A stretch of DNA of 64,000 bases, from NCBI GenBank assembly GCA_041666545.1, contig JBAYGS010000001.1, positions 153,942-217,941 of the forward strand. Direction: 5' to 3'. Below are positions 2,878 to 62,260 of this stretch, in pieces; position 1 is the first letter of the stretch; each line of letters begins with the position of its first letter. The notes beneath the pieces were generated by a model, which did not search any database, was not told where the DNA came from, and worked only from the letters and a program-made list of their open reading frames with translations. The DNA comes from Minisyncoccota bacterium. Lineage in GTDB: Bacteria; Patescibacteriota; Minisyncoccia; Phycocordibacterales; JBAYGS01. The translations under genes were made by a program, and so were the position numbers.

Positions 2878-4572
2878 CTATTCTGAGGACGGCAGACCTT
2901 GAGCCTTGCGAATTTTTAGATCAAGTCGATTCAAGGCACTTAAAATCGCCCTAATCGAAGCGTTTTCGCTGTTGGTATCCGTACCTGCTCCCCAGCAACG
3001 CCAACCTTTGGAATTTTCAATCTGAACATAGGCAATGGCCTCGGCACTCTCGCCGACACCCAGAGAATGTTCGTGGTAAGAGACAACAGTAAAATAATCC
3101 GCCAGGGCTTGAGTTAGCAGAGCTTGAACAAAGGCCGAGATGGGACCGTTGCCAGCACCGGTAACCCACTCCACTTTGTAGTCGTGAAGAATTTCGGCGT
3201 TGCAGACGCATTCGCCGTCACCTGTCGATTTAAACTTAACGAGCGACCAGGGATAATCGAGTGCAATGTATTCCTTATAAAACATCTCTCTCAATTCGGT
3301 CGGCGTCACTTCGCGCCCCAGAGAATCTACTTGGTCATTTGCGATGGGTCCAAACTCCCTCTGCATTTCCTTCGGCAAAAGTATGCCGAATTCTTTTTCC
3401 AAGAGGTAGGCAACCCCGCCTTTGCCGGATTGACTATTAACCCGAATGACTTCCCGATATTGCCGACCGATATCTTGCGGATCAATCGGTAAATACGGAA
3501 CATCCCAAACTATTCGACCATCCGCTTCGCGCTCCGCCAGGGCCTTTTTGATGGCGTCCTGATGAGAGCCACTGAAAGCCGTAAGTACCAGCTCACCCGA
3601 AAATGGCTGACGAGGCGGGACAAGCATGCCCGTACACTGTTCGCAAACCTGGCGAATCGCGCCAAGTTCACTGAAGTCCAAACCAGGGTCGATGCCGTGC
3701 ATCAAGAGGTTTAAGGCCAAGACCACAATGTCCAAATTGCCCGTCCGCTCGCCATTTCCGAAAAGCGTACCCTCGACTCTGTCGGCGCCTGCCAACAATC
3801 CCAACTCGGTAGCGGCAATACCCGTACCCCGATCATTATGTGTGTGCAAACTGATAATCAAAGACTCGCGCCATTTAATATTTGTGCACATCCACTCAAT
3901 CTGGTCGGCGTAAACATTCGGCATCGCAACCTCGACGGTCGACGGTAGGTTTAGAATCATCTTCCGCTCCGGTGTCGGCTGCCAAACATCCATGACCGCC
4001 TCAGCAATTTCTTTTGAGAATTCAACTTCAGTGGCTGAAAAACTTTCAGGAGAATACTGGAGCGTCACCTGGGTCCCAACAAGCAACCCCAACCGATTTT
4101 TTATCAGTTCTGCGCCATAGACAGCAAGCGCCTTGATTTCGGCCTTGGACTTGCAGAAAACAACCCGGCGCTGCGCCGGAGAAGTTGAGTTATACAGATG
4201 AATGATAACCCGCTTGGCCCCAACGAGCGCTTTGAAAGTGGCGTCAATCAAATCTTCGCGGGCCTGAACCAACACCTGAATGGTCACATCATCGGGGATA
4301 TGTCCGCCTTCGATTAGAAGCCGCGTGAAGCGATACTCGGTGTTCGAAGCAGATGGAAAACCGATTTCAATTTCTTTGAAACCAAGCCTAACGAGTAACT
4401 GAAACATCGCCAGTTTCTGGGCGACATTCATCGGCACCGGAAGAGCTTGATTGCCATCGCGCAGATCTACACTCGCCCAGATTGGCGCCCGTGTCAAAAC
4501 TCGGGACGGCCACTTGCGGTCAGGTAAGACAATAACAGGAAAAGACGCGTACTTGCCAGGTTTAATTTTCAT
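2878..4572 (-). CDS. leuA: 2-isopropylmalate synthase, long (LeuA1/actinobacterial-type) form
   Basis: RAPIWASVDLRDGNQAL, FPSASNTEYRF, HTHNDRGTGIAA and GNGERTGN match LeuA motifs and the C-terminal regulatory domain. Start is most likely the ATG at 4572 (MKIKPGKY). The ORF extends to a TTG at 4596. Confidence 0.85.
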   Translation of the reverse strand: MKIKPGKYASFPVIVLPDRKWPSRVLTRAPIWASVDLRDGNQALPVPMNVAQKLAMFQLLVRLGFKEIEIGFPSASNTEYRFTRLLIEGGHIPDDVTIQVLVQAREDLIDATFKALVGAKRVIIHLYNSTSPAQRRVVFCKSKAEIKALAVYGAELIKNRLGLLVGTQVTLQYSPESFSATEVEFSKEIAEAVMDVWQPTPERKMILNLPSTVEVAMPNVYADQIEWMCTNIKWRESLIISLHTHNDRGTGIAATELGLLAGADRVEGTLFGNGERTGNLDIVVLALNLLMHGIDPGLDFSELGAIRQVCEQCTGMLVPPRQPFSGELVLTAFSGSHQDAIKKALAEREADGRIVWDVPYLPIDPQDIGRQYREVIRVNSQSGKGGVAYLLEKEFGILLPKEMQREFGPIANDQVDSLGREVTPTELREMFYKEYIALDYPWSLVKFKSTGDGECVCNAEILHDYKVEWVTGAGNGPISAFVQALLTQALADYFTVVSYHEHSLGVGESAEAIAYVQIENSKGWRCWGAGTDTNSENASIRAILSALNRLDLKIRKAQGLPSSE

Positions 4573-4596
4573 AACAAGGAGTGGTTTCGGATACAA

Positions 4597-4906
4597 TTAT
4601 GTTGTTTTTCAAGGAACAGCCCCCCACTTTTTATCGAGACTCTAGTCTAGACAAAAATCAGCGTCTTCGGGTGAAGAGCTGACTTGTGTTCACAATCTAC
4701 CTTAATTCTCCTTGTCTACATTAACTAGATTTTGAATACGAGCAAACTCTCCACCGTAGGGAGGAGCAAGAGACCCGAGAGCAAACTCTTGTGACTCGTA
4801 TTATTCATAGCGACCATATTACTTCGACACTGAAACAATGTCAAGAAATCTGCAGCCAACTTCAATCGGACATAGCCTAACCTTAACGGGATGATATAAT
4901 ATTCCC
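4597..4906 (-). promoter_or_regulatory. ~310 nt leuA 5' leader with an attenuator-like hairpin plus U-run
   Basis: A long non-coding leader lies upstream of leuA. In mRNA sense there is a stem (cagcucuucacccgaagacgcug) followed by auuuuug about 90 nt before the start. Inverted repeats aatacgag/ctcgtatt and a direct repeat gagcaaactct are also present. Confidence 0.35.
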
Positions 4907-5827
4907 ATGATTAATATCTACACCTACAAAAAACTCAAATGGATTGACTTGGAGTCTCCGACCAAGGATGAAATTCGTTCGATTATGGAAGAGTACCGGA
5001 TTCACCCCCTAATCGCCGATGAATTGATCAATCCCAGCCTCAAGCAAAAGGTTGATCTCTATAAGGATTTCATTTATCTAATTCTCCACTTCCCCGCCCT
5101 GAAGCACAGTCACCAGAAAACTGCCGGCGCCAACCAGGAAATTGATTTCGTCATCGGCAAAGATGTCATTATCACCTCGCACTACGACACAGTCGACCCT
5201 CTCCATGAATTTGCAAAAATTTTCGAGGTCAACAGCATTCTCGACAAAAGTCATATTGGCGACCATGCCGGCTTCATTTTCTATCACATGATGAAAAGCA
5301 TCTATCGCGCCAGCACCAATGAGTTGGAGGCGATTGAAGACTCGCTCAAAGAAATCGAGACCCAGATTTTTGCCGGCGAAGAGCGCGCCATGGTTTTCGC
5401 TCTTTCCAAAATCAGCCGAAATTTGCTGAATTTCAAAACCACGATTTCACTCCATAACGACATTCTTCAATCCTTCGAAGCAGCCGGTAAAATATTTTTC
5501 GCTGGCGAATTTGAGCACTATCTTCAAGCAATCAGCAGTGAATATTTCAAAGTCGACAAGATTATCAAAAGCCACATCGAGGCTTTGGCCGAATTGCGCG
5601 AGACGAACAATTCCCTTCTTTCTACAAAGCAAAATGAAATTATGACAACCCTCACGGTCATGGCCTTCATCATCTTGCCTTTATCGTTCATTTCTTCGCT
5701 CTACAGCATGAACACCTCCTTTTGGCCCTTCGTTGGCGTGAAAAATGACTTCTGGATTATCTCCGGCACGATGGCAATAATCGGCATAATTATTTTCCTG
5801 GCCTTCAAGCGGAAACGCTGGCTGTAG
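4907..5827 (+). CDS. CorA-family divalent cation transporter (SMN in place of GMN)
   Basis: The C-terminus has two TM helices with YSMNTSFWPF between them, giving CorA topology. A TATAAT lies 6 nt upstream of the ATG, suggesting a leaderless-like transcript. Confidence 0.65.
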   Translation: MINIYTYKKLKWIDLESPTKDEIRSIMEEYRIHPLIADELINPSLKQKVDLYKDFIYLILHFPALKHSHQKTAGANQEIDFVIGKDVIITSHYDTVDPLHEFAKIFEVNSILDKSHIGDHAGFIFYHMMKSIYRASTNELEAIEDSLKEIETQIFAGEERAMVFALSKISRNLLNFKTTISLHNDILQSFEAAGKIFFAGEFEHYLQAISSEYFKVDKIIKSHIEALAELRETNNSLLSTKQNEIMTTLTVMAFIILPLSFISSLYSMNTSFWPFVGVKNDFWIISGTMAIIGIIIFLAFKRKRWL

Positions 5828-48543: not shown

Positions 48544-51500
48544 CTATACAATATCACTAACTACAAAATTAAGCAAGCGACCCTTTACATAAATGGTTTT
48601 AATCAGTTTCTTACCATTTAACCACTTAGAAACCTCGCTCATTTGCCTGGCCTTTTGCTCAATCTCAGCCTGGTTTGCCCCTATATCGATTTCCAAAATC
48701 GCCCGAGTTTTCCCGCTGATTTGGATGGCAATTTTGGCGGTTGAGTCCTGAATTTTCGCCGGATCAAAAGTCGGCCACGCTTCAAGGTGGATGGATTTCT
48801 TACTTGCCCGACTGCGTCCTCGCGGATTAGGGCTTACCAAATTAGACCACAGCTCTTCCGTGATGTGTGGCGCAAACGGAGCCAAAAGTTTTAATAAGAT
48901 CTTGAAATAATCTTCACCCAACTTCCCTACTGCTTCAATTTCATTAAGCAAAATCATCAGTGAGCTAATAGCAGTGTTGAATTTCATTTCGGAAATGTCT
49001 TCTGAAACCTTTTTGATTGTTTGATTAAATAGAATTTCCAGTTTCCCCTGTTGTTGGTTGTCAGTTGTAAGTTTGTACTGTAACCGCCAGACTCGCTCCA
49101 AAAATCGGCGTGAGCCGGCAATTCCTTCGGTACTCCAAGCAATCGCTTGATCAAAAGGCCCCAGAAACATCTCGTACAGACGCAAAGTGTCGGCGCCGAC
49201 TTTTTCAGAGATATCATCAGGGTTAACCACATTACCCCAACGCTTGCTCATCTTCCGTCCGTCCTCGCCCATAATCAAGCCGACTGTTTGAAGTCTAGTG
49301 AAAGGTTCAACTGTCGAAACGGCGCCAATATCAAGCAGGAACTTATGCCAAAAACGAGCATAGATTAAATGTCGGGTCGCATGCTCAGCCCCGCCAACAT
49401 AGAAATCTACCGGAAGCCAGTATTTAATTTTATTTTGAATATTGTTGCTTGAAATTTGTTTGGTTATTGTTTCTTGCGATTTGAGATTTTCGCTTATGCA
49501 ATAAGCGATATAGTACCAACTTGAGCCGGCCCATTGTGGCATCGTATTCGTCTCGCGCTTTGCCGGACCCTTGCACTTCGGACATTTCACATTCACCCAC
49601 TTAGAAATCGCGGCAAGCGGTGACTCACCTGTGCCAGTCGGCTCGTAAGATTTAACCTTGGGCAATTTGACCGGTAGATCTTTTTCCGGCACCGGTACGG
49701 CCACGGTGACCGGTTCAATCTCCCAGGCTACCAAACCATTCTGCTTAATCTTTTCGACATAATTAGCTCCAAAAGCACTGTAGGCAATCTCCAATTCTTT
49801 CGCCGATCGAAAATTCTTTTTGCTTAATTGCGACAAAATAGATTTATCTTTAAAAACCTCGTCAAAATTCTTATAGACTCTAGATGATTTGACTCGATAA
49901 ACCAGTTCCTCCCTAACTTTCCTAGTTTTTTGGTCCTTGCGGCTGAAAAGCAACAAATCACCAACCTTGAAATCGCCAAAATATCTCCCTTTTTCTTCAG
50001 GGTTAAGGGCACGAGTTTCTACAGTTTTGACTCCTGACTTCAAATCTCGCCAAACCGGCTCATAATAAAAGTTAAGAGTAGTTTTCGCCTTTGCCCGATC
50101 AGTCTCAAGGGCACATTGGGCACAGTGCACAAGTGGAATCGGTTCGCCCCAATACCTTTGACGCGAGAAGACCCAATCTCGGAGTTTGTACTTGGTAATC
50201 ATTTTCCCGCCGGCAAATTCAGTAATTTCTTTTTTGGCCAATGCCGACTCAGTGTCATTAAATTTACTTGAATTAATTAAAACACCGTGTCCAACAAAAG
50301 CCTGCTCTTTATCAAAGAGGCCCCAGGCGTATTGATTATTAGGCAGGTTAAGGAATTCTGGCATCTTGGCGCGCTCAATCCAGACCGGAGAATGTTTGGC
50401 CTTTTCAGATTCAGAGACTTCATCTTGCTCGCCATCCACTAGCTCAAAATAAAGTGTGTGGCCCAGGGAATATCTATTTACATCTTTATGACCGGCAAAG
50501 TAGTGGCTGTGAACTTCTCCTCCGACCCGACGAATAAACTTGGCATTCTTAAAGCCGGTCTCCTCATGGATTTCACGCTTGGCGGTTTCCGTGACATCTT
50601 CGCCGTCTTCAACCCCGCCGATAATAAAGGAGTGCCAATTAAATTTTTGCCAGTCCAAACACAAAAACTTATCTTCTTGCCAATGCTTCAGGATCACGTA
50701 AACCGTTTTCCGCTTTTCTGTCTTTTTGTCGGCACGAACAGCATCCGGTCCGGAAACAGTTTTAAAGTATGGAGCAATAACTTCCTTAATCGGCAAATTA
50801 TATTTCTTAGCAAAAGCAAAATCGCGCTCATCGTGGGCCGGCACGGCCATTACTGCGCCGGTGCCGTAGTCAGCCAAAACATAATCGGCCACCCAGATTG
50901 ACACTTCCTCGTTATTGGCCGGATTAATCGCCTTAATACCTTTCAGCTCGACTCCGGTTTTCTCTTTATTTTCGGCTGTGCGCTCGATTTCGGTTTTATT
51001 CTTCGATAGTACGATATATCGTACTATCTCGTCCCAGTTTTGAATTTTTGGTTTTAAGTCTTGGAGTAATTTTGATTCCGGCGCCAACACCACATAAGTG
51101 ACGCCGAAAAGCGTATCGGCTCTGGTCGTAAACACTCTAATCTCCTCCTCAACTTGAAACTTTAAACTTGAAACTTTAAAACTAATCTCCGATCCTTCCG
51201 ACTTCCCAATCCAATTTTTCTGAAGCTCGATAATCGAATTCGGCCAGTTTAAAATCGGCCCGCCAGTTTTATCCTTCGCGTCCAAATCGGCAAGCAGTCT
51301 TTCGGCATAATCAGTAATTCTCAAAACCCACTGACGCATCGGCTTTTTCTCAACCACACTGCTACAGCGTTCGCAAAGGCCATCTTCCACATCCTCATTC
51401 GCCAAACCGGTCTTGCAAGACGGGCACCAGTTGATCGGTTCAAAGGATTCATAAGCCAAACCTTTTTCAAAAAGTTTTAAGAAAATCCACTGCGTCCACT

Positions 51501-51918
51501 TGTAATAGGCCGGGTCGGTCGTGTTTACTTCCCGACTCCAATCATAATCAAAACCAAAAATCTCCAACTGCTTTTTATAGCGTTTAACATTCTTGGCGAC
51601 CGCAATCGCCGGATTAGTCTTGGTTTTGATGGCATAGTTCTCAGCCGGTAAACCGAACGCATCAAAGCCCATCGGGTGAAGCACCGAGTGGCCCTGCATT
51701 CTTTTCATTCGCGAAATTATATCGGTTGCGATATAGCCCTTGGGATGCCCAACATGAAGCCCTTCACCGGATGGATACGGGAACATGTCCAAAATATAAA
51801 ACTTTTTTTTATTTGAATCTTCCTTAGTGGCATAAATTTTCTGCTTTGCCCAAATCTTCTGCCACTTCGATTCAATTTTGCGATGATTATAGTCTTTGCT
51901 GTGCATAGGCAAAATCAT
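48544..51918 (-). CDS. leuS: leucyl-tRNA synthetase with two inserted extra domains (Nudix-like and ASCH/PUA-like)
   Basis: HIGH-type motif GLHVGHPKGY, CP1 editing motif YGTGAVMAVPAHDERDFAFA, KMSKR. The protein is 1124 aa, against a typical ~800-860 aa. Details are in the findings. Confidence 0.9.
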   Translation of the reverse strand: MILPMHSKDYNHRKIESKWQKIWAKQKIYATKEDSNKKKFYILDMFPYPSGEGLHVGHPKGYIATDIISRMKRMQGHSVLHPMGFDAFGLPAENYAIKTKTNPAIAVAKNVKRYKKQLEIFGFDYDWSREVNTTDPAYYKWTQWIFLKLFEKGLAYESFEPINWCPSCKTGLANEDVEDGLCERCSSVVEKKPMRQWVLRITDYAERLLADLDAKDKTGGPILNWPNSIIELQKNWIGKSEGSEISFKVSSLKFQVEEEIRVFTTRADTLFGVTYVVLAPESKLLQDLKPKIQNWDEIVRYIVLSKNKTEIERTAENKEKTGVELKGIKAINPANNEEVSIWVADYVLADYGTGAVMAVPAHDERDFAFAKKYNLPIKEVIAPYFKTVSGPDAVRADKKTEKRKTVYVILKHWQEDKFLCLDWQKFNWHSFIIGGVEDGEDVTETAKREIHEETGFKNAKFIRRVGGEVHSHYFAGHKDVNRYSLGHTLYFELVDGEQDEVSESEKAKHSPVWIERAKMPEFLNLPNNQYAWGLFDKEQAFVGHGVLINSSKFNDTESALAKKEITEFAGGKMITKYKLRDWVFSRQRYWGEPIPLVHCAQCALETDRAKAKTTLNFYYEPVWRDLKSGVKTVETRALNPEEKGRYFGDFKVGDLLLFSRKDQKTRKVREELVYRVKSSRVYKNFDEVFKDKSILSQLSKKNFRSAKELEIAYSAFGANYVEKIKQNGLVAWEIEPVTVAVPVPEKDLPVKLPKVKSYEPTGTGESPLAAISKWVNVKCPKCKGPAKRETNTMPQWAGSSWYYIAYCISENLKSQETITKQISSNNIQNKIKYWLPVDFYVGGAEHATRHLIYARFWHKFLLDIGAVSTVEPFTRLQTVGLIMGEDGRKMSKRWGNVVNPDDISEKVGADTLRLYEMFLGPFDQAIAWSTEGIAGSRRFLERVWRLQYKLTTDNQQQGKLEILFNQTIKKVSEDISEMKFNTAISSLMILLNEIEAVGKLGEDYFKILLKLLAPFAPHITEELWSNLVSPNPRGRSRASKKSIHLEAWPTFDPAKIQDSTAKIAIQISGKTRAILEIDIGANQAEIEQKARQMSEVSKWLNGKKLIKTIYVKGRLLNFVVSDIV

Positions 51919-58502: not shown

Positions 58503-59516
58503 TTAGCGCTTGGCGATAATCGATTTCTTGTAGGTATCCAGGTGTTCGAGCGCAATACCGGTGCCTTTGGCAACGCAGTAGAGTGCGTCGTCGGCCAAAA
58601 TGGCCTTCACGCCAGTTCGGCGAAAAACCAGCTCCGGCAAATTGCGTAATTGCGAAGACCCGCCGGTCATAATAATGCCCCGGTCGATAATGTCAGCAGC
58701 AAGTTCCGGCGGAGTCTCCTGCAACACATCCTTGATAGCCTTAATCATGTCGCGCAGTTCCTTGGCAATCGCTTTCACGATTTCATTCGTCTTAATTTCC
58801 GTCGAACGAGGCAGGCCCGAAAGAAAATCTCGGCCTTTGATGACAAGGGCGAGCTCCTCCTCAACCAAAACTGCCGAGCCAATTTTAATTTTAATATCTT
58901 CAGCCGTCTGATCACCGATGGCCAAATTGAAAGTTTTTTTAATGTAGTCGGTGATGGCGTAGTCGATTCGGTTGCCGGCACACTTGACCGAAGTTGAGGA
59001 CACGATGCCACCAAGAGAGATCACCGCCACATCAGTGGTGCCTCCACCAATATCAACAATCATGTGGCCGATTGGTTCGTAAATTGGAATTCCCGCCCCG
59101 ATTGCCGCCAAAATCGGCTCCTTCACAACATAAGCATTTTTGGCGCCAGCTTTAATTGCCGCTTCAATAACCGCGCGCCTTTCAGTCGAGGTGACACCAG
59201 CCGGCACAGAGACCATTACTTCCGGTCGGAAAAAGTTGAAGGGGCCGAGAGCTTTGTCGATAAAATAACGGAGCATCGCTTCTGTCACGCGATAATCGGC
59301 AATCACACCATCTTTCATTGGTCGGTAAGCAATAATCGACTCCGGAGTTTTGCCGATCATATTTTTGGCCTCAACTCCGACCGCCAAAATTTTATTATCT
59401 TGCTCCGAAACCGCCACTACCGACGGCTCCATTAGCACAATCCCTTTGCCCGGCACAAAAACCAAGGTGTTGGCTGTACCCAAGTCAATTCCAAGTTTTT
59501 TGGAGAAAAATGACAC
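58503..59516 (-). CDS. mreB: rod shape-determining protein MreB
   Basis: LGIDLGTANTLVF, DIGGGTTDVAVISLGG and the actin-fold MreB family. Confidence 0.95.
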   Translation of the reverse strand: MSFFSKKLGIDLGTANTLVFVPGKGIVLMEPSVVAVSEQDNKILAVGVEAKNMIGKTPESIIAYRPMKDGVIADYRVTEAMLRYFIDKALGPFNFFRPEVMVSVPAGVTSTERRAVIEAAIKAGAKNAYVVKEPILAAIGAGIPIYEPIGHMIVDIGGGTTDVAVISLGGIVSSTSVKCAGNRIDYAITDYIKKTFNLAIGDQTAEDIKIKIGSAVLVEEELALVIKGRDFLSGLPRSTEIKTNEIVKAIAKELRDMIKAIKDVLQETPPELAADIIDRGIIMTGGSSQLRNLPELVFRRTGVKAILADDALYCVAKGTGIALEHLDTYKKSIIAKR

Positions 59517-59757: not shown

Positions 59758-60237
59758 ATGACAGAAATAGCGCCGCGATCCCGACTGTTCGGTATACCAA
59801 TCTGGCACCACCTCCATAGTGGTAAATGCCAAGTCAAAACTCTTGACTTGGCAAACAAACAGCTGGTCATTGAGGCCAGCGTCGCCAACTTAACAATTCG
59901 ACTTCGCCCTGATGCCACCCCAGCTTACCGTTGGCTGGTCACTTGGCTGGTCAGGCACAGTCGGGAGGAATTTGACACTGGCACCCGAATTTTCAGTGAC
60001 AAAGACATGAAGGGGGCATTTTTGACGGACGGTCAGATAGAATTCGGCGAAATGCTCATCACCGAGCACGGAGGCAGTTCCGCCCACCAAGGGCATTACC
60101 TGCGTTTCAGAAAGTACCTCAATATTCCGGGTCCCGGCACCGGATATGACGGGGACCCGAACATTTCGATCGAAGTGGATGAAGCCATCAAGTCTGCTGT
60201 CCAACAGCTACTCGAAAGTGCCCGCCCAAAACAGTAA
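59758..60237 (+). CDS. hypothetical protein (159 aa), GC-richer
   Basis: Followed by a terminator. No recognised family. Confidence 0.45.
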   Translation: MTEIAPRSRLFGIPIWHHLHSGKCQVKTLDLANKQLVIEASVANLTIRLRPDATPAYRWLVTWLVRHSREEFDTGTRIFSDKDMKGAFLTDGQIEFGEMLITEHGGSSAHQGHYLRFRKYLNIPGPGTGYDGDPNISIEVDEAIKSAVQQLLESARPKQ

Positions 60238-60243
60238 GCCCCC

Positions 60244-60272
60244 AGCCGCGCTCGCAACGAGCGCGGCTTTTA
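60244..60272 (+). terminator. rho-independent terminator
   Basis: agccgcgctcgcaacgagcgcggctttt. Confidence 0.7.
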
Positions 60273-60343
60273 AATTGCTTGACATAAAATTTTAATCTGG
60301 TAAATTGTATTCGGACAGCCGTAAACCCTAACCAAGGCAAATT

Positions 60344-60550
60344 ATGATGAATAAAATCATCTTTTGGCCGATTATATTCCTGGCAATACTCATGATGGGT
60401 GGGGCGTTCTGGTTCTTCGAGGTCCCGACCTATGTGGTCGTGATCATGGTAGGCGCCACCCTGGCAATCCTCATCGCCGCTTTCCTGAAAGGGCGACGCG
60501 AAGGTCAGGACTCCCCAACTCCATGGGAAGTGCCCATCAAAAAATTGTAG
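60344..60550 (+). CDS. small membrane protein (68 aa)
   Basis: Two hydrophobic helices (IIFWPIIFLAILMMGGAFWFF / VVVIMVGATLAILIAAF). A terminator follows. The antisense ORF 60188..60838 is judged spurious. Confidence 0.45.
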   Translation: MMNKIIFWPIIFLAILMMGGAFWFFEVPTYVVVIMVGATLAILIAAFLKGRREGQDSPTPWEVPIKKL

Positions 60551-60560
60551 CAAGTCCCCA

Positions 60561-60591
60561 AGCCCTCCCCACCCGGAGGGCTTTTCTTTTT
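60561..60591 (+). terminator. rho-independent terminator
   Basis: agccctccccacccggagggcttttctttttc. Confidence 0.7.
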
Positions 60592-60663
60592 CCCCAATTT
60601 TTACCCCTATAATTAATATAGCGTCTATGCTATATTGTATGTATAAAACATTAGACATAAAAC

Positions 60664-62190
60664 ATGAAACATCAGAAAAAAGATAAAACCCTGGCCTCCT
60701 TAGGAAAATTGATTCAAAACCTGCGAGAAGAGCGGGGCATTTCCCAGGAAGAGCTGGCTCAGAAAATTGGCACCACCCAGAGTGCCATCGCCAGACTCGA
60801 ATCCGGCTCGCAAAACATTTCGGCCGGAACACTTTCAAAAATTAGTGCCGCTTTGGAACGAAATTTAATTGAGCTATCGAAGGGGCGACTTGATGTCCAA
60901 ATTCAAGGCGCTTCTCCCCTTTCCGGCACCATCCAAACTAAAACCTCTAAAAATGCGGCCGTCGGTTTGCTCTGCGCTTCCCTCTTAAACCGCGGCAAGA
61001 CAACCTTGAGAAATGTCCCAAAAATTGAGGAGGTCAACCGCATTATCGAAGTACTCACCAGCCTTGATATTAAAGTTCGTTGGCAAAACAGTGATTTGGA
61101 AATTGAGCCGCCACAGAATTTCAATATCAAAAATTTTGATATCGAGGCCGGCACCAAGACCCGGAGCATTATTATGCTCATCGGCCCACTCATCCACTTT
61201 TTGAAGAAATTCTCCTTGCCTCACGTTGGCGGTTGCCGTTTGGGCGCCCGCACCATCGCGCCTCATGTTTTCGCCCTGGAAAAACTTGGTGTGAAAATCG
61301 AGACAAAATCAAAAGAGTACCGAATCAGTCAGAAAAAGTTGAAGCCCAATTATATCGTTCTCTACGAGACCGGCGATACGGTGACTGAAAATGTTTTAAT
61401 GGCGGCCGCGCTCATTCCCAGCAAAACCACGATTCGGTTCGCCTCGGCCAACTATCAAGTCCAGGATGTTTGCTTTTTCCTGCAGGCCCTCGGGGTCAAA
61501 GTCGAAGGTATCGGCACCTCGACTCTGATTGTGCACGGTCTCAAGGAAATCAAAAAGGATGTCGAGTATTCGATTAGTGAGGACCCGATTGACTCAATGT
61601 TCTTTATCGCGGCCGCCGCTACCACCAAATCGAATATCACAATTACCCGCGCCCCGATCGACTTTTTGGAAATTGAGCTTCTGAAACTCGAAAAAATGGG
61701 TTTTCGCTTTAAAATCTCCAAACGCTACAAGGCCCGAAATGGTGAGACTGATTTAGTTGATATCACCACCTATCCATCAAAATTGACCGCCCCGCCCGAC
61801 AAAATTGAGGCCCGACCTTATCCTGGGCTCAACATCGACAACTTGCCATTTTTCGCCGTCATCGCGACCCAAGCGAGGGGTCAGACCTTGATTCACGACT
61901 GGGTCTACGAGGAGCGCGCCATCTATTACAAGGAGCTCGACAAATTGCGTGCTGATACAATTTTGGCCGACCCGCATCGACTTTTTGTGAATGGACCGAC
62001 CAAATTGAAAGCAGCTGAAGTAGTCTGTCCGCCGGCGCTTCGTCCGGCCGCCATTATCCTAATCGGCATGCTCGCCGCCGAAGGTACTTCGATTTTACGA
62101 AACATTTACAGCATCAATCGTGGCTATGAAGACATCGTCAAGCGACTGCAAAGCCTCGGCGCAAAAATAAAAATTTTGAGAGAGATCTAA
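60664..62190 (+). CDS. murA: UDP-N-acetylglucosamine 1-carboxyvinyltransferase with an N-terminal XRE-family HTH domain fused
   Basis: Residues ~10-75 are LASLGKLIQNLREERGISQEELAQKIGTTQSAIARLESGSQNISAGTLSKISAAL, a Cro/C1-type HTH. The remainder is a full MurA (KNAAVGLLCASLL..., catalytic-loop GGCRLGARTI). Confidence 0.85.
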   Translation: MKHQKKDKTLASLGKLIQNLREERGISQEELAQKIGTTQSAIARLESGSQNISAGTLSKISAALERNLIELSKGRLDVQIQGASPLSGTIQTKTSKNAAVGLLCASLLNRGKTTLRNVPKIEEVNRIIEVLTSLDIKVRWQNSDLEIEPPQNFNIKNFDIEAGTKTRSIIMLIGPLIHFLKKFSLPHVGGCRLGARTIAPHVFALEKLGVKIETKSKEYRISQKKLKPNYIVLYETGDTVTENVLMAAALIPSKTTIRFASANYQVQDVCFFLQALGVKVEGIGTSTLIVHGLKEIKKDVEYSISEDPIDSMFFIAAAATTKSNITITRAPIDFLEIELLKLEKMGFRFKISKRYKARNGETDLVDITTYPSKLTAPPDKIEARPYPGLNIDNLPFFAVIATQARGQTLIHDWVYEERAIYYKELDKLRADTILADPHRLFVNGPTKLKAAEVVCPPALRPAAIILIGMLAAEGTSILRNIYSINRGYEDIVKRLQSLGAKIKILREI

Positions 62191-62191
62191 T

Positions 62192-62260
62192 ATCAAGGCT
62201 CAACCTCGCTTAGCGAGGTTGAGCCTTGATAAAAAAGCCCGGCCACAAGAGTGGCCGGGC
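62192..62260. terminator. two tandem stable hairpins after murA
   Basis: The first is a 17 bp perfect stem, atcaaggctcaacctcg ctta gcgaggttgagccttgat. Then aaaaaa, then gcccggccacaagagtggccgggc. Confidence 0.6.

Follow-up and report, generated by a model that had tools for sequence, protein, structure and literature searches.

Several metabolic enzymes double as transcriptional regulators that tie transcription to metabolic state, among them PutA (a proline dehydrogenase with a ribbon-helix-helix domain), BirA (a biotin ligase with a winged helix-turn-helix domain), and NadR, and the concept of such trigger enzymes is reportedly due to Commichau and Stuelke. C.BclI, C.AhdI, and phage 434 repressor/Cro are small, dimeric XRE proteins whose palindromic binding sites overlap the promoters of their own genes, and the XRE-type helix-turn-helix (HTH) domain of RodZ binds MreB. 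Fosfomycin targets MurA, the enzyme of the first committed step in peptidoglycan synthesis. How cells set the level of MurA is under active study; this level is controlled post-translationally in Firmicutes, by ClpCP with ReoM, ReoY, and PrkA, and is coupled to LpxC in Pseudomonas. Here we analyzed a stretch of 64,000 nucleotides (64 kb; "the window" throughout) from contig JBAYGS010000001.1 of a Minisyncoccota bacterium and describe within it HTH-murA, a gene whose product carries a Cro/C1-type (XRE) HTH domain in front of MurA. We assign a probability of about 0.72 to the reading that this protein is a bifunctional trigger enzyme, in which a catalytically competent MurA would repress its own promoter through the HTH bound to an upstream palindrome.

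The gene is a single open reading frame (ORF) without interruption, encoding a product of 508 amino acids (aa) (Table 1). The original prediction, made from the sequence of the window, had described a textbook Cro/C1 HTH at the N-terminus, joined in frame to a complete MurA with its catalytic Cys loop intact, and each part of this description held, the quoted HTH peptide included. The Pfam HTH_3 model scored 57-60.8 bits over aa 17-71 against a gathering cutoff of 23 (E = 2e-15 in the full protein and 1.3e-16 with the N-terminus alone), which places the domain in that family, and the HTH_31, HTH_19, and HTH_26 models likewise exceeded their own cutoffs on the N-terminus. PDB matches to the HTH alone were C.BclI, HigA, 434 repressor, C.AhdI, and HipB. 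Four helices (aa 8-23, 28-35, 39-47, and 54-64) form the HTH in an AlphaFold2 (AF2) model, and columns R21, Q28, Q39, S40, R44, E46, G48, Q50, and N51 do not vary among the 49 family members aligned, catalytically dead ones included. As modeled, the domain is of XRE type, a helical bundle with a recognition helix bearing conserved polar residues of the base-contact kind. Membership in the type II XRE antitoxins (HipB, HigA, and MqsA) was considered and rejected, with weak matches confined to the HTH and the HTH itself fused to MurA; no toxin-family Pfam match was present among the annotated genes 10 kb to either side, where several small ORFs have no Pfam match.

Behind the HTH, a flexible tether leads into the MurA domain, and in 340 of 353 proteins a distance of 43 residues separates the HTH motif from the K-N motif of MurA, so that the length of the tether appears constrained. 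The Pfam EPSP_synthase model matched aa 81-495 (E = 2e-47), and the NCBIfam MurA subfamily model NF006873 gave 333.7 bits, exceeding its cutoff of 297. The closest solved relative is C. jejuni MurA (5ujs, E = 4e-59), in which GGCAIGQR stands opposite the Cys-loop residues GGCRLGAR. The AF2 model, built on the 49-sequence alignment, had a mean predicted local distance difference test score (pLDDT) of 90.6 and a predicted template modeling score of 0.82, with pLDDT of ~95 in the MurA body. Foldseek aligned this body to 1uae, 3kqj, and 1a2n with template modeling scores of 0.92-0.94 and root-mean-square deviations of 2.2-2.6 A, confirming the two-domain enolpyruvyl transferase fold, and none of the solved MurA chains among the PDB sequence and Foldseek matches carries an N-terminal extension. 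The block with C191 and R196 had a mean pLDDT of 86 and the following block (aa 191-200) a mean of 64; the Cys loop is mobile in solved MurA structures. The predicted architecture is thus an independent four-helix HTH, a disordered tether, and a complete MurA body.

A scripted mapping from E. coli MurA paired K22 with K96, N23 with N97, R91 with R167, C115 with C191, R120 with R196, D305 with D392, R331 with R418, R371 with R460, and R397 with R486; D231 is kept too, so that 10 of the 11 active-site positions inspected are retained, D369 being the exception. The codon at 62035-62037 encodes Ala458 at that position, within a motif, PPALRP, found across the clade in proteins with or without the HTH, and of the 90 canonical MurAs retrieved, 79 have Asp at the D369 position. 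The replacement may affect catalysis or fosfomycin binding in Patescibacteria-type MurAs. A predicted active enzyme domain and a DNA-binding domain in one polypeptide is the constitution of a trigger enzyme.

As the original prediction had proposed, the fusion was sought in related genomes, and it is present across several classes of Patescibacteria. All of the best 120 database matches to the window protein had both the HTH and PF00275 (64-88% identity, 494-535 aa), and the HTH was found in 79 of the 80 best species-representative loci (1 genome per species), which included Paceibacterota, Parcubacteria, Taylorbacteria, Campbellbacteria, and, at 55-59% identity, Saccharimonadia. Matches named Liptonbacteria, Colwellbacteria, and Doudnabacteria carried it as well. 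With a Saccharimonadia member as the query, the best 120 matches were again 120 fusions, all of them environmental and none from a cultivated species. The HTH accompanied 8 of 8 core catalytic residues in 228 of the 338 retrieved proteins long enough for classification, and 227 HTH-bearing proteins show no variation at the 10 active-site positions kept in the window protein. The sequences remain 55-88% identical across classes, a sign of strong purifying selection on the whole MurA body. The architecture had been called unusual for MurA, which applies to bacteria generally but not to the lineage of the window, where it is the prevalent form. The combination is catalogued in databases as precomputed Pfam matches and has apparently not been interpreted; a full-text literature search, with subscription-only literature outside its scope, found no description of the fusion, the operator, or the dead-enzyme derivatives.

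Metagenome assemblies sometimes produce unusual fusions by error, and on that prior one might suspect that a frameshift, an overlooked stop codon, or chimeric assembly had joined a small XRE gene to murA. We consider such an artifact next to impossible, since the same in-frame fusion, with its fixed-length tether, occurs in hundreds of independent assemblies (NCBI, JGI, ENA, and Logan), which rules out an error at the junction. The identical protein occurs on 3 contigs; it is deposited in NCBI, JGI, and ENA from a 341-kb Paceibacterota contig, annotated as MurA alone. No split HTH/murA gene pair was seen. The HTH-less proteins P0121, P0123, and P0124 and the degenerate-HTH protein P0127 (P numbers denote retrieved proteins and L numbers retrieved loci) nest within the fusion clade in a rough neighbor-joining tree, and no HTH-family ORF lies directly upstream of the HTH-less murA in the loci examined for it (L046, L087, and L089). 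Another, different MurA fusion was seen in P0257, a protein of 1204 aa with a MurA domain at residues 755-1197 only.

A palindromic operator upstream of the gene was also looked for, as had been suggested, and a conserved and gene-specific candidate was identified. It is a perfect 8+8 inverted repeat with an N6 spacer, and its core, ATAGC-N6-GCTAT (60618-60633), occurs in a single exact copy in the window. The element typically reads TATAGC(A/G)TATATGCTATA(C/A)T upstream of the orthologue in most Paceibacteria-type loci. Across ~646 kb of related flanks, all exact copies of ATAGC-N6-GCTAT lie 14-76 nt upstream of HTH-murA, mostly at -25 to -29, and the window operator belongs to a second position class at about -46. 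Defining the strict operator as ATAGC-N6-GCTAT, ATACC-N6-GGTAT, or ATATC-N6-GATAT, we found it upstream of HTH-murA in 48 of 78 loci, compared with 0 of 448 regions lying upstream of other genes at these loci (p ~1e-47) and 11 of 15,600 shuffled murA upstream regions. No further exact operator was found in the 64-kb window, an extra 10 kb of L084, or the flanks of the 80 loci. A permissive score (ATAxy-N6-y'x'TAT) was dropped, its controls being mostly coding and not matched in composition and its value reaching 7-8, out of register, in AT-rich upstream DNA of HTH-less genes; a generic operator match at 51719 was rejected as chance level, inside the coding region of a tRNA synthetase.

The right arm of the palindrome contains a predicted extended -10 element, and across loci the TG is present in 53 of 62, followed by TATACT (26), TATAAT (16), or TATATT (8). 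The palindrome might accordingly be a promoter feature, either a bidirectional mreB/murA promoter with 2 extended -10 boxes placed back to back or a promoter shape typical of the lineage, with the HTH acting on unrelated targets or being a minor appendage. Such an origin would suit the coincidence of the right arm with TGnTATAAT, the same box being offered on the other strand by a perfect palindrome, and the many loci with a divergent mreB within 32-154 nt. We nevertheless regard it as quite unlikely, because the palindrome occurs whether the upstream gene is co-directional (18 of 20 loci) or divergent (45 of 51 loci) by crude ORF calls, the upstream ORF in the window is itself co-directional and ends in a terminator, and the absence of a strict copy from all 448 other upstream regions does not fit a generic promoter shape. 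HTH-less loci with a divergent mreB have lost the left arm, and Saccharimonadia conserve the symmetry and not the TG.

The sequence of the arms follows the sequence of the recognition helix. The helix TTQS(A/V)(I/V)AR (T27/A32 in 434-repressor numbering) occurs with GC..GC arms in 41 of 48 loci, whereas the Saccharimonadia helix TSQSAVNR (S27/N32) occurs with CC..GG, TC..GG, or TC..GA arms and never with GC..GC. Arm sequences therefore vary between classes while complementarity between the arms persists, as expected of a site for a dimeric DNA-binding protein and not of a promoter box. In the 2 closest HTH-less loci, L046 and L087, the -10 box and right arm are kept (TATGCTATAGT and TATGCTATACT), with a left arm complementary at 3 of 5 and 2 of 5 positions, respectively, compared with at least 4 of 5 in 57 of 69 HTH-bearing loci. 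No palindrome element was found upstream of the MurA genes of L088, L089, and L090, the last encoding the degenerate-HTH protein P0127. Elsewhere in L090, a perfect palindrome (ATACCCC-TA-GGGGTAT followed by AAT, 4281-4296) precedes a VTT/DedA-domain gene (4310-5017) by 29 nt and may be due to chance or be the site of another regulator.

We also identified mreB as a conserved neighbor, divergent and upstream of HTH-murA in 46 of 80 loci and only 32-154 nt away in 29 of them, where the palindrome falls within the control region shared by the 2 genes. On this arrangement, mreB could be co-regulated by HTH-MurA in many Paceibacteria. In the window, small ORFs (59758-60237 and 60344-60550) and hairpins (60244-60268 and 60560-60583) separate the 2 genes, and mreB is treated here as context only. 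The association raises another explanation, that the HTH is a protein-protein module like that of RodZ, tethering MurA to MreB filaments or another partner, with the palindrome serving a different regulator or a promoter. HTH domains can be re-used for protein contacts, the cytoplasmic HTH of RodZ is among the subjects treated in PMC9804626, and mreB adjoins HTH-murA in the loci just counted and lies 1.1 kb upstream of it in the window. We judge this explanation unlikely, given that the RodZ-type HTH_25 model reached 17.2 bits, under its cutoff of 24.6, whereas HTH_3 reached 60.8, and that the positions matching the base-contact residues of 434 repressor are invariant. Covariation of the palindrome with the recognition helix, and decay of the left arm where the HTH is lost, likewise argue against a purely protein-binding role. 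Saccharimonadia keep the HTH and a palindrome and rarely have mreB next to them (3 of 24), and the HTH-less MurAs of L046 and L087 still adjoin mreB. Membership of the protein in RodZ itself was rejected, the remainder of the chain being MurA with no RodZ_C match in addition to the HTH_25 score.

An exhaustive search of 50%-identity representatives, with a follow-up search, recovered 12 full-length HTH-bearing proteins without C115, R91, and R120 (P0130, P0131, P0144, P0148, P0163, P0201, P0255, and P0271-P0275). In E. coli numbering, C115, R91, and R120 are retained in 0 of 12 and R371 in 1 of 12, and D231 is retained in 12 of 12, D305 and R331 in 10 of 12 each, and N23 in 8 of 12. At least one of them, P0271, is also an NCBI entry, unnamed there. 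These dozen or so retrieved proteins are probably not enzymes at all. The HTH is retained in them (for example, TSQSAVARIEKGEQNLT), and a palindrome stands just before the start codon in 3 of the 3 dead-clade loci with upstream DNA read: ATATC-ATATAT-GATAT after TTGACA in the 60-bp intergenic region of L081 (P0130), ATAAC-ATATAT-GCTAT followed by ACT in L086 (P0144), and ATATC-AGATAT-GATAT followed by AAT in L085 (P0201). The HTH function would accordingly be retained without catalysis.

The genes for P0130 and P0144 are divergent to a separate murA-murB, with ddl and a Mur ligase downstream of the former and a Mur ligase downstream of the latter. The stand-alone MurAs of these 2 loci are ~29% identical to fusion-family members and 35-38% identical to canonical MurAs, and their placement in a different, canonical lineage by a rough neighbor-joining tree suggests displacement of the enzyme rather than a simple duplication. 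Most simply, catalysis in these genomes would have passed to another MurA and the HTH-MurA would have been kept purely as a regulator of Mur genes, which argues that the HTH has a function in the active fusions as well.

The same relatives open an alternative for the window protein, namely that it acts mainly in the control of transcription, its MurA domain sensing a ligand and contributing little or no catalysis, with a working MurA encoded elsewhere. Dead HTH-MurA-like proteins do exist, and 2 of the 3 examined adjoin a separate canonical MurA; the window protein falls under the cutoff of the TIGR01072 equivalog and has D369 replaced, and the genome was inspected over 74 kb. We hold this to be very unlikely, because the 10 retained active-site positions are invariant among the HTH-bearing proteins counted above, the D369 replacement is common to HTH-less members of the same clade, purifying selection across classes extends over the MurA body, and no second PF00275 gene was found within 10 kb on either side or elsewhere in the ~74 kb of genome seen.

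Between the 2 roles raised by the original prediction for the DNA-binding domain, auto-regulation and localization to DNA, the evidence favors auto-regulation. We propose that 2 HTH-MurA molecules would bind ATAGC-N6-GCTAT as a dimer through the tethered HTH, the half-sites of this 5-N6-5 palindrome being spaced by 11 bp, about 1 helical turn. A protein bound over the -10 box of a sigma-70 promoter occludes it; HTH-MurA on the candidate operator would likewise cover the extended -10 box and repress murA transcription, a sign of regulation suggested by the position of the operator, and peptidoglycan synthesis would come under negative autoregulation at its first committed step. Both DNA binding and dimerization are inferred here from sequence. 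The putative targets belong to the pathway of the enzyme, with the candidate operator on its own promoter and 2 of the 3 dead relatives examined lying in divergent murA-murB, ddl, or Mur-ligase clusters.

Several observations weigh against the proposed autorepressing enzyme. The TIGR01072 score was 323.6, under the cutoff of 392.7, and the equivalent of D369 is Ala458 or a gap throughout the Patescibacteria-type MurA clade, so that activity of the textbook kind cannot be taken for granted. Most descriptions of MurA are of a monomer, and a palindromic site needs a dimer. About one third of HTH-bearing loci have no strict operator match, several of these cases coming from start-codon choice or variants with 1 mismatch, and the right arm, as part of the promoter, is conserved regardless, so that information resides only in the left arm and the symmetry. 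The covariation is essentially a contrast between 2 or 3 clades, not phylogenetically independent, and P0144 of the dead clade, with a TSQSAIAR helix and ATAAC..GCTAT arms, departs from the rule. The HTH-less loci informative for decay of the left arm number only 2. The analysis covered 64 kb of the genome plus 10 kb, and a second MurA or more operators may lie outside this part.

A more far-reaching form of the bifunctional reading adds control by ligands. MurA closes on UDP-N-acetylglucosamine (UDP-GlcNAc) and binds UDP-N-acetylmuramic acid (UDP-MurNAc) tightly, and complexes with UDP-MurNAc and phosphoenolpyruvate (PEP) are present among the PDB matches (3su9, 3swd, and 8d84). Speculatively, UDP-GlcNAc, PEP, or the feedback ligand UDP-MurNAc on the MurA domain could modulate DNA binding through the open/closed transition, in which case HTH-MurA would be a sensor of cell wall precursor supply. 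Whether the state of MurA sets the transcription of murA, and of the divergent mreB in many Paceibacteria, as a ligand-gated master switch, with some lineages having gone on to a noncatalytic, UDP-sugar-sensing factor for murA-murB and ddl/Mur-ligase operons, we regard as a tentative and rather doubtful proposition.

Table 1. Coordinates of HTH-murA, its domains, and surrounding features (positions in the window unless a locus is named).
Feature	Position	Strand	Basis or remark
mreB	58503..59516	-	Pfam MreB_Mbl; 1.1 kb upstream of HTH-murA
Terminator-like hairpin with T-run	60560..60583	+	Ends the small upstream ORF and isolates the HTH-murA promoter; terminator scan and repeat search
Candidate operator, inverted repeat AATATAGC-GTCTAT-GCTATATT	60615..60636	.	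Ends 28 nt before the ATG; repeat search
Predicted extended -10 element TG-C-TATATT	60628..60636	+	Within the right arm of the palindrome; read from sequence
HTH-murA	60664..62190	+	508 codons and stop, one ORF for XRE HTH, tether, and MurA; ORF list, domain matches, AF2 (mean pLDDT 90.6)
Cro/C1 (XRE, HTH_3) DNA-binding domain	60712..60876	+	aa 17-71; Pfam HTH_3; AF2 pLDDT 86-90
Putative recognition helix QSAIARLES	60778..60804	+	aa 39-47; invariant columns, AF2 helix limits, covariation with operator arms
Flexible tether ERNLIELSKGRL	60856..60891	+	aa 65-76, between HTH and MurA; pLDDT <50 at aa 70-73
MurA (UDP-GlcNAc enolpyruvyl transferase) domain	60895..62178	+	aa 78-505; NF006873, Foldseek, catalytic residues
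Catalytic Cys loop V-G-G-C191-R-L-G-A-R196	61225..61251	+	Equivalents of E. coli C115 and R120; alignments
GC-rich hairpin AAGGCTCAACCTCGC-TTAG-CGAGGTTGAGCCTT	62195..62227	+	5 nt past the stop codon; read from sequence
Convergent terminator	62237-62260	-	Terminator scan
Stand-alone MurA beside dead relative, L081	4624-5940	-	Cys loop intact
Stand-alone MurA beside dead relative, L086	3768-5126	-	Cys loop intact

HTH-murA, followed by a GC-rich hairpin, looks monocistronic. The predicted leader of its mRNA is ~20 nt (region 60631-60664), with no obvious Shine-Dalgarno sequence, and no known RNA element was found in it, the Rfam scan of the window giving tRNA alone. In the majority class of loci (for example, L004, L009, L014, and L087), the -10 hexamer ends ~7 nt ahead of the ATG, which implies leaderless HTH-murA mRNAs in many Patescibacteria. 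A minus-strand ORF (60188-60838, 216 aa) overlaps the intergenic region and the HTH-coding part of the gene; in view of the conserved plus-strand coding sequence, this ORF is almost certainly spurious. Farther away, the window encodes a class-I aminoacyl-tRNA synthetase of 1124 aa (48544-51918, minus strand; tRNA-synt_1, 1g, 1_2, and Anticodon_1) with a NUDIX match between synthetase segments, which by its domain matches is an unusual insertion or fusion.

If the bifunctional reading is correct, a large bacterial radiation would set its MurA level by a repressor domain built into the enzyme, and MurA would be added to the few known trigger enzymes. For Patescibacteria, this would be one of only a few predicted pairs of regulator and operator in which the DNA motif is defined, and the pair may connect precursor synthesis to the mreB cytoskeleton gene in many genomes; the active fusions, HTH-loss variants, and dead regulators would make up a natural series from enzyme to transcription factor. 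Were the ligand-gated switch also true, the series would trace a path from enzyme through trigger enzyme to pseudoenzyme regulator in organisms with very few transcription factors. For annotation, hundreds of database entries labeled "MurA" are two-domain proteins.

Compared with canonical MurA of E. coli and E. cloacae (1uae, 3kqj, and 3swd), HTH-MurA has the same two-lobed fold and conserves K22, N23, R91, C115, R120, D305, R331, R371, and R397; it differs by 77 extra N-terminal residues, the replaced D369, and an identity of 25-31%. The ClpCP system of Firmicutes addresses the same problem, the amount of MurA, by regulated proteolysis through separate proteins, whereas control by HTH-MurA would be transcriptional and built in. 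Like RodZ, HTH-MurA bears an XRE-type HTH on a protein of cell wall synthesis with mreB nearby; unlike RodZ, it has no transmembrane or C-terminal RodZ domain, and the evidence favors DNA over MreB as the partner. The best sequence matches of the HTH are C.BclI, C.AhdI, and phage 434 repressor/Cro, and its helices 2-3, ISQEELAQKIGTTQSAIARLESG, are close to those of 434 repressor. Each of those proteins stands alone, with 70-100 aa and a dimer interface of its own, whereas HTH-MurA has 4 predicted HTH helices on a 47-kDa enzyme, so that the MurA part would have to supply or permit dimerization. From the known trigger enzymes, it differs in pairing MurA with a Cro/C1 XRE HTH, a pairing of which no description was found, and in that control by ligands is shown for PutA and BirA and would here be a prediction. 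The putative targets seen for HTH-MurA comprise its own promoter only, to which the dead relatives add murA-murB and ddl/Mur-ligase operons. The common ground is that a metabolic enzyme carries its own DNA-binding domain and, as predicted here, represses its own gene or pathway without a separate regulator.

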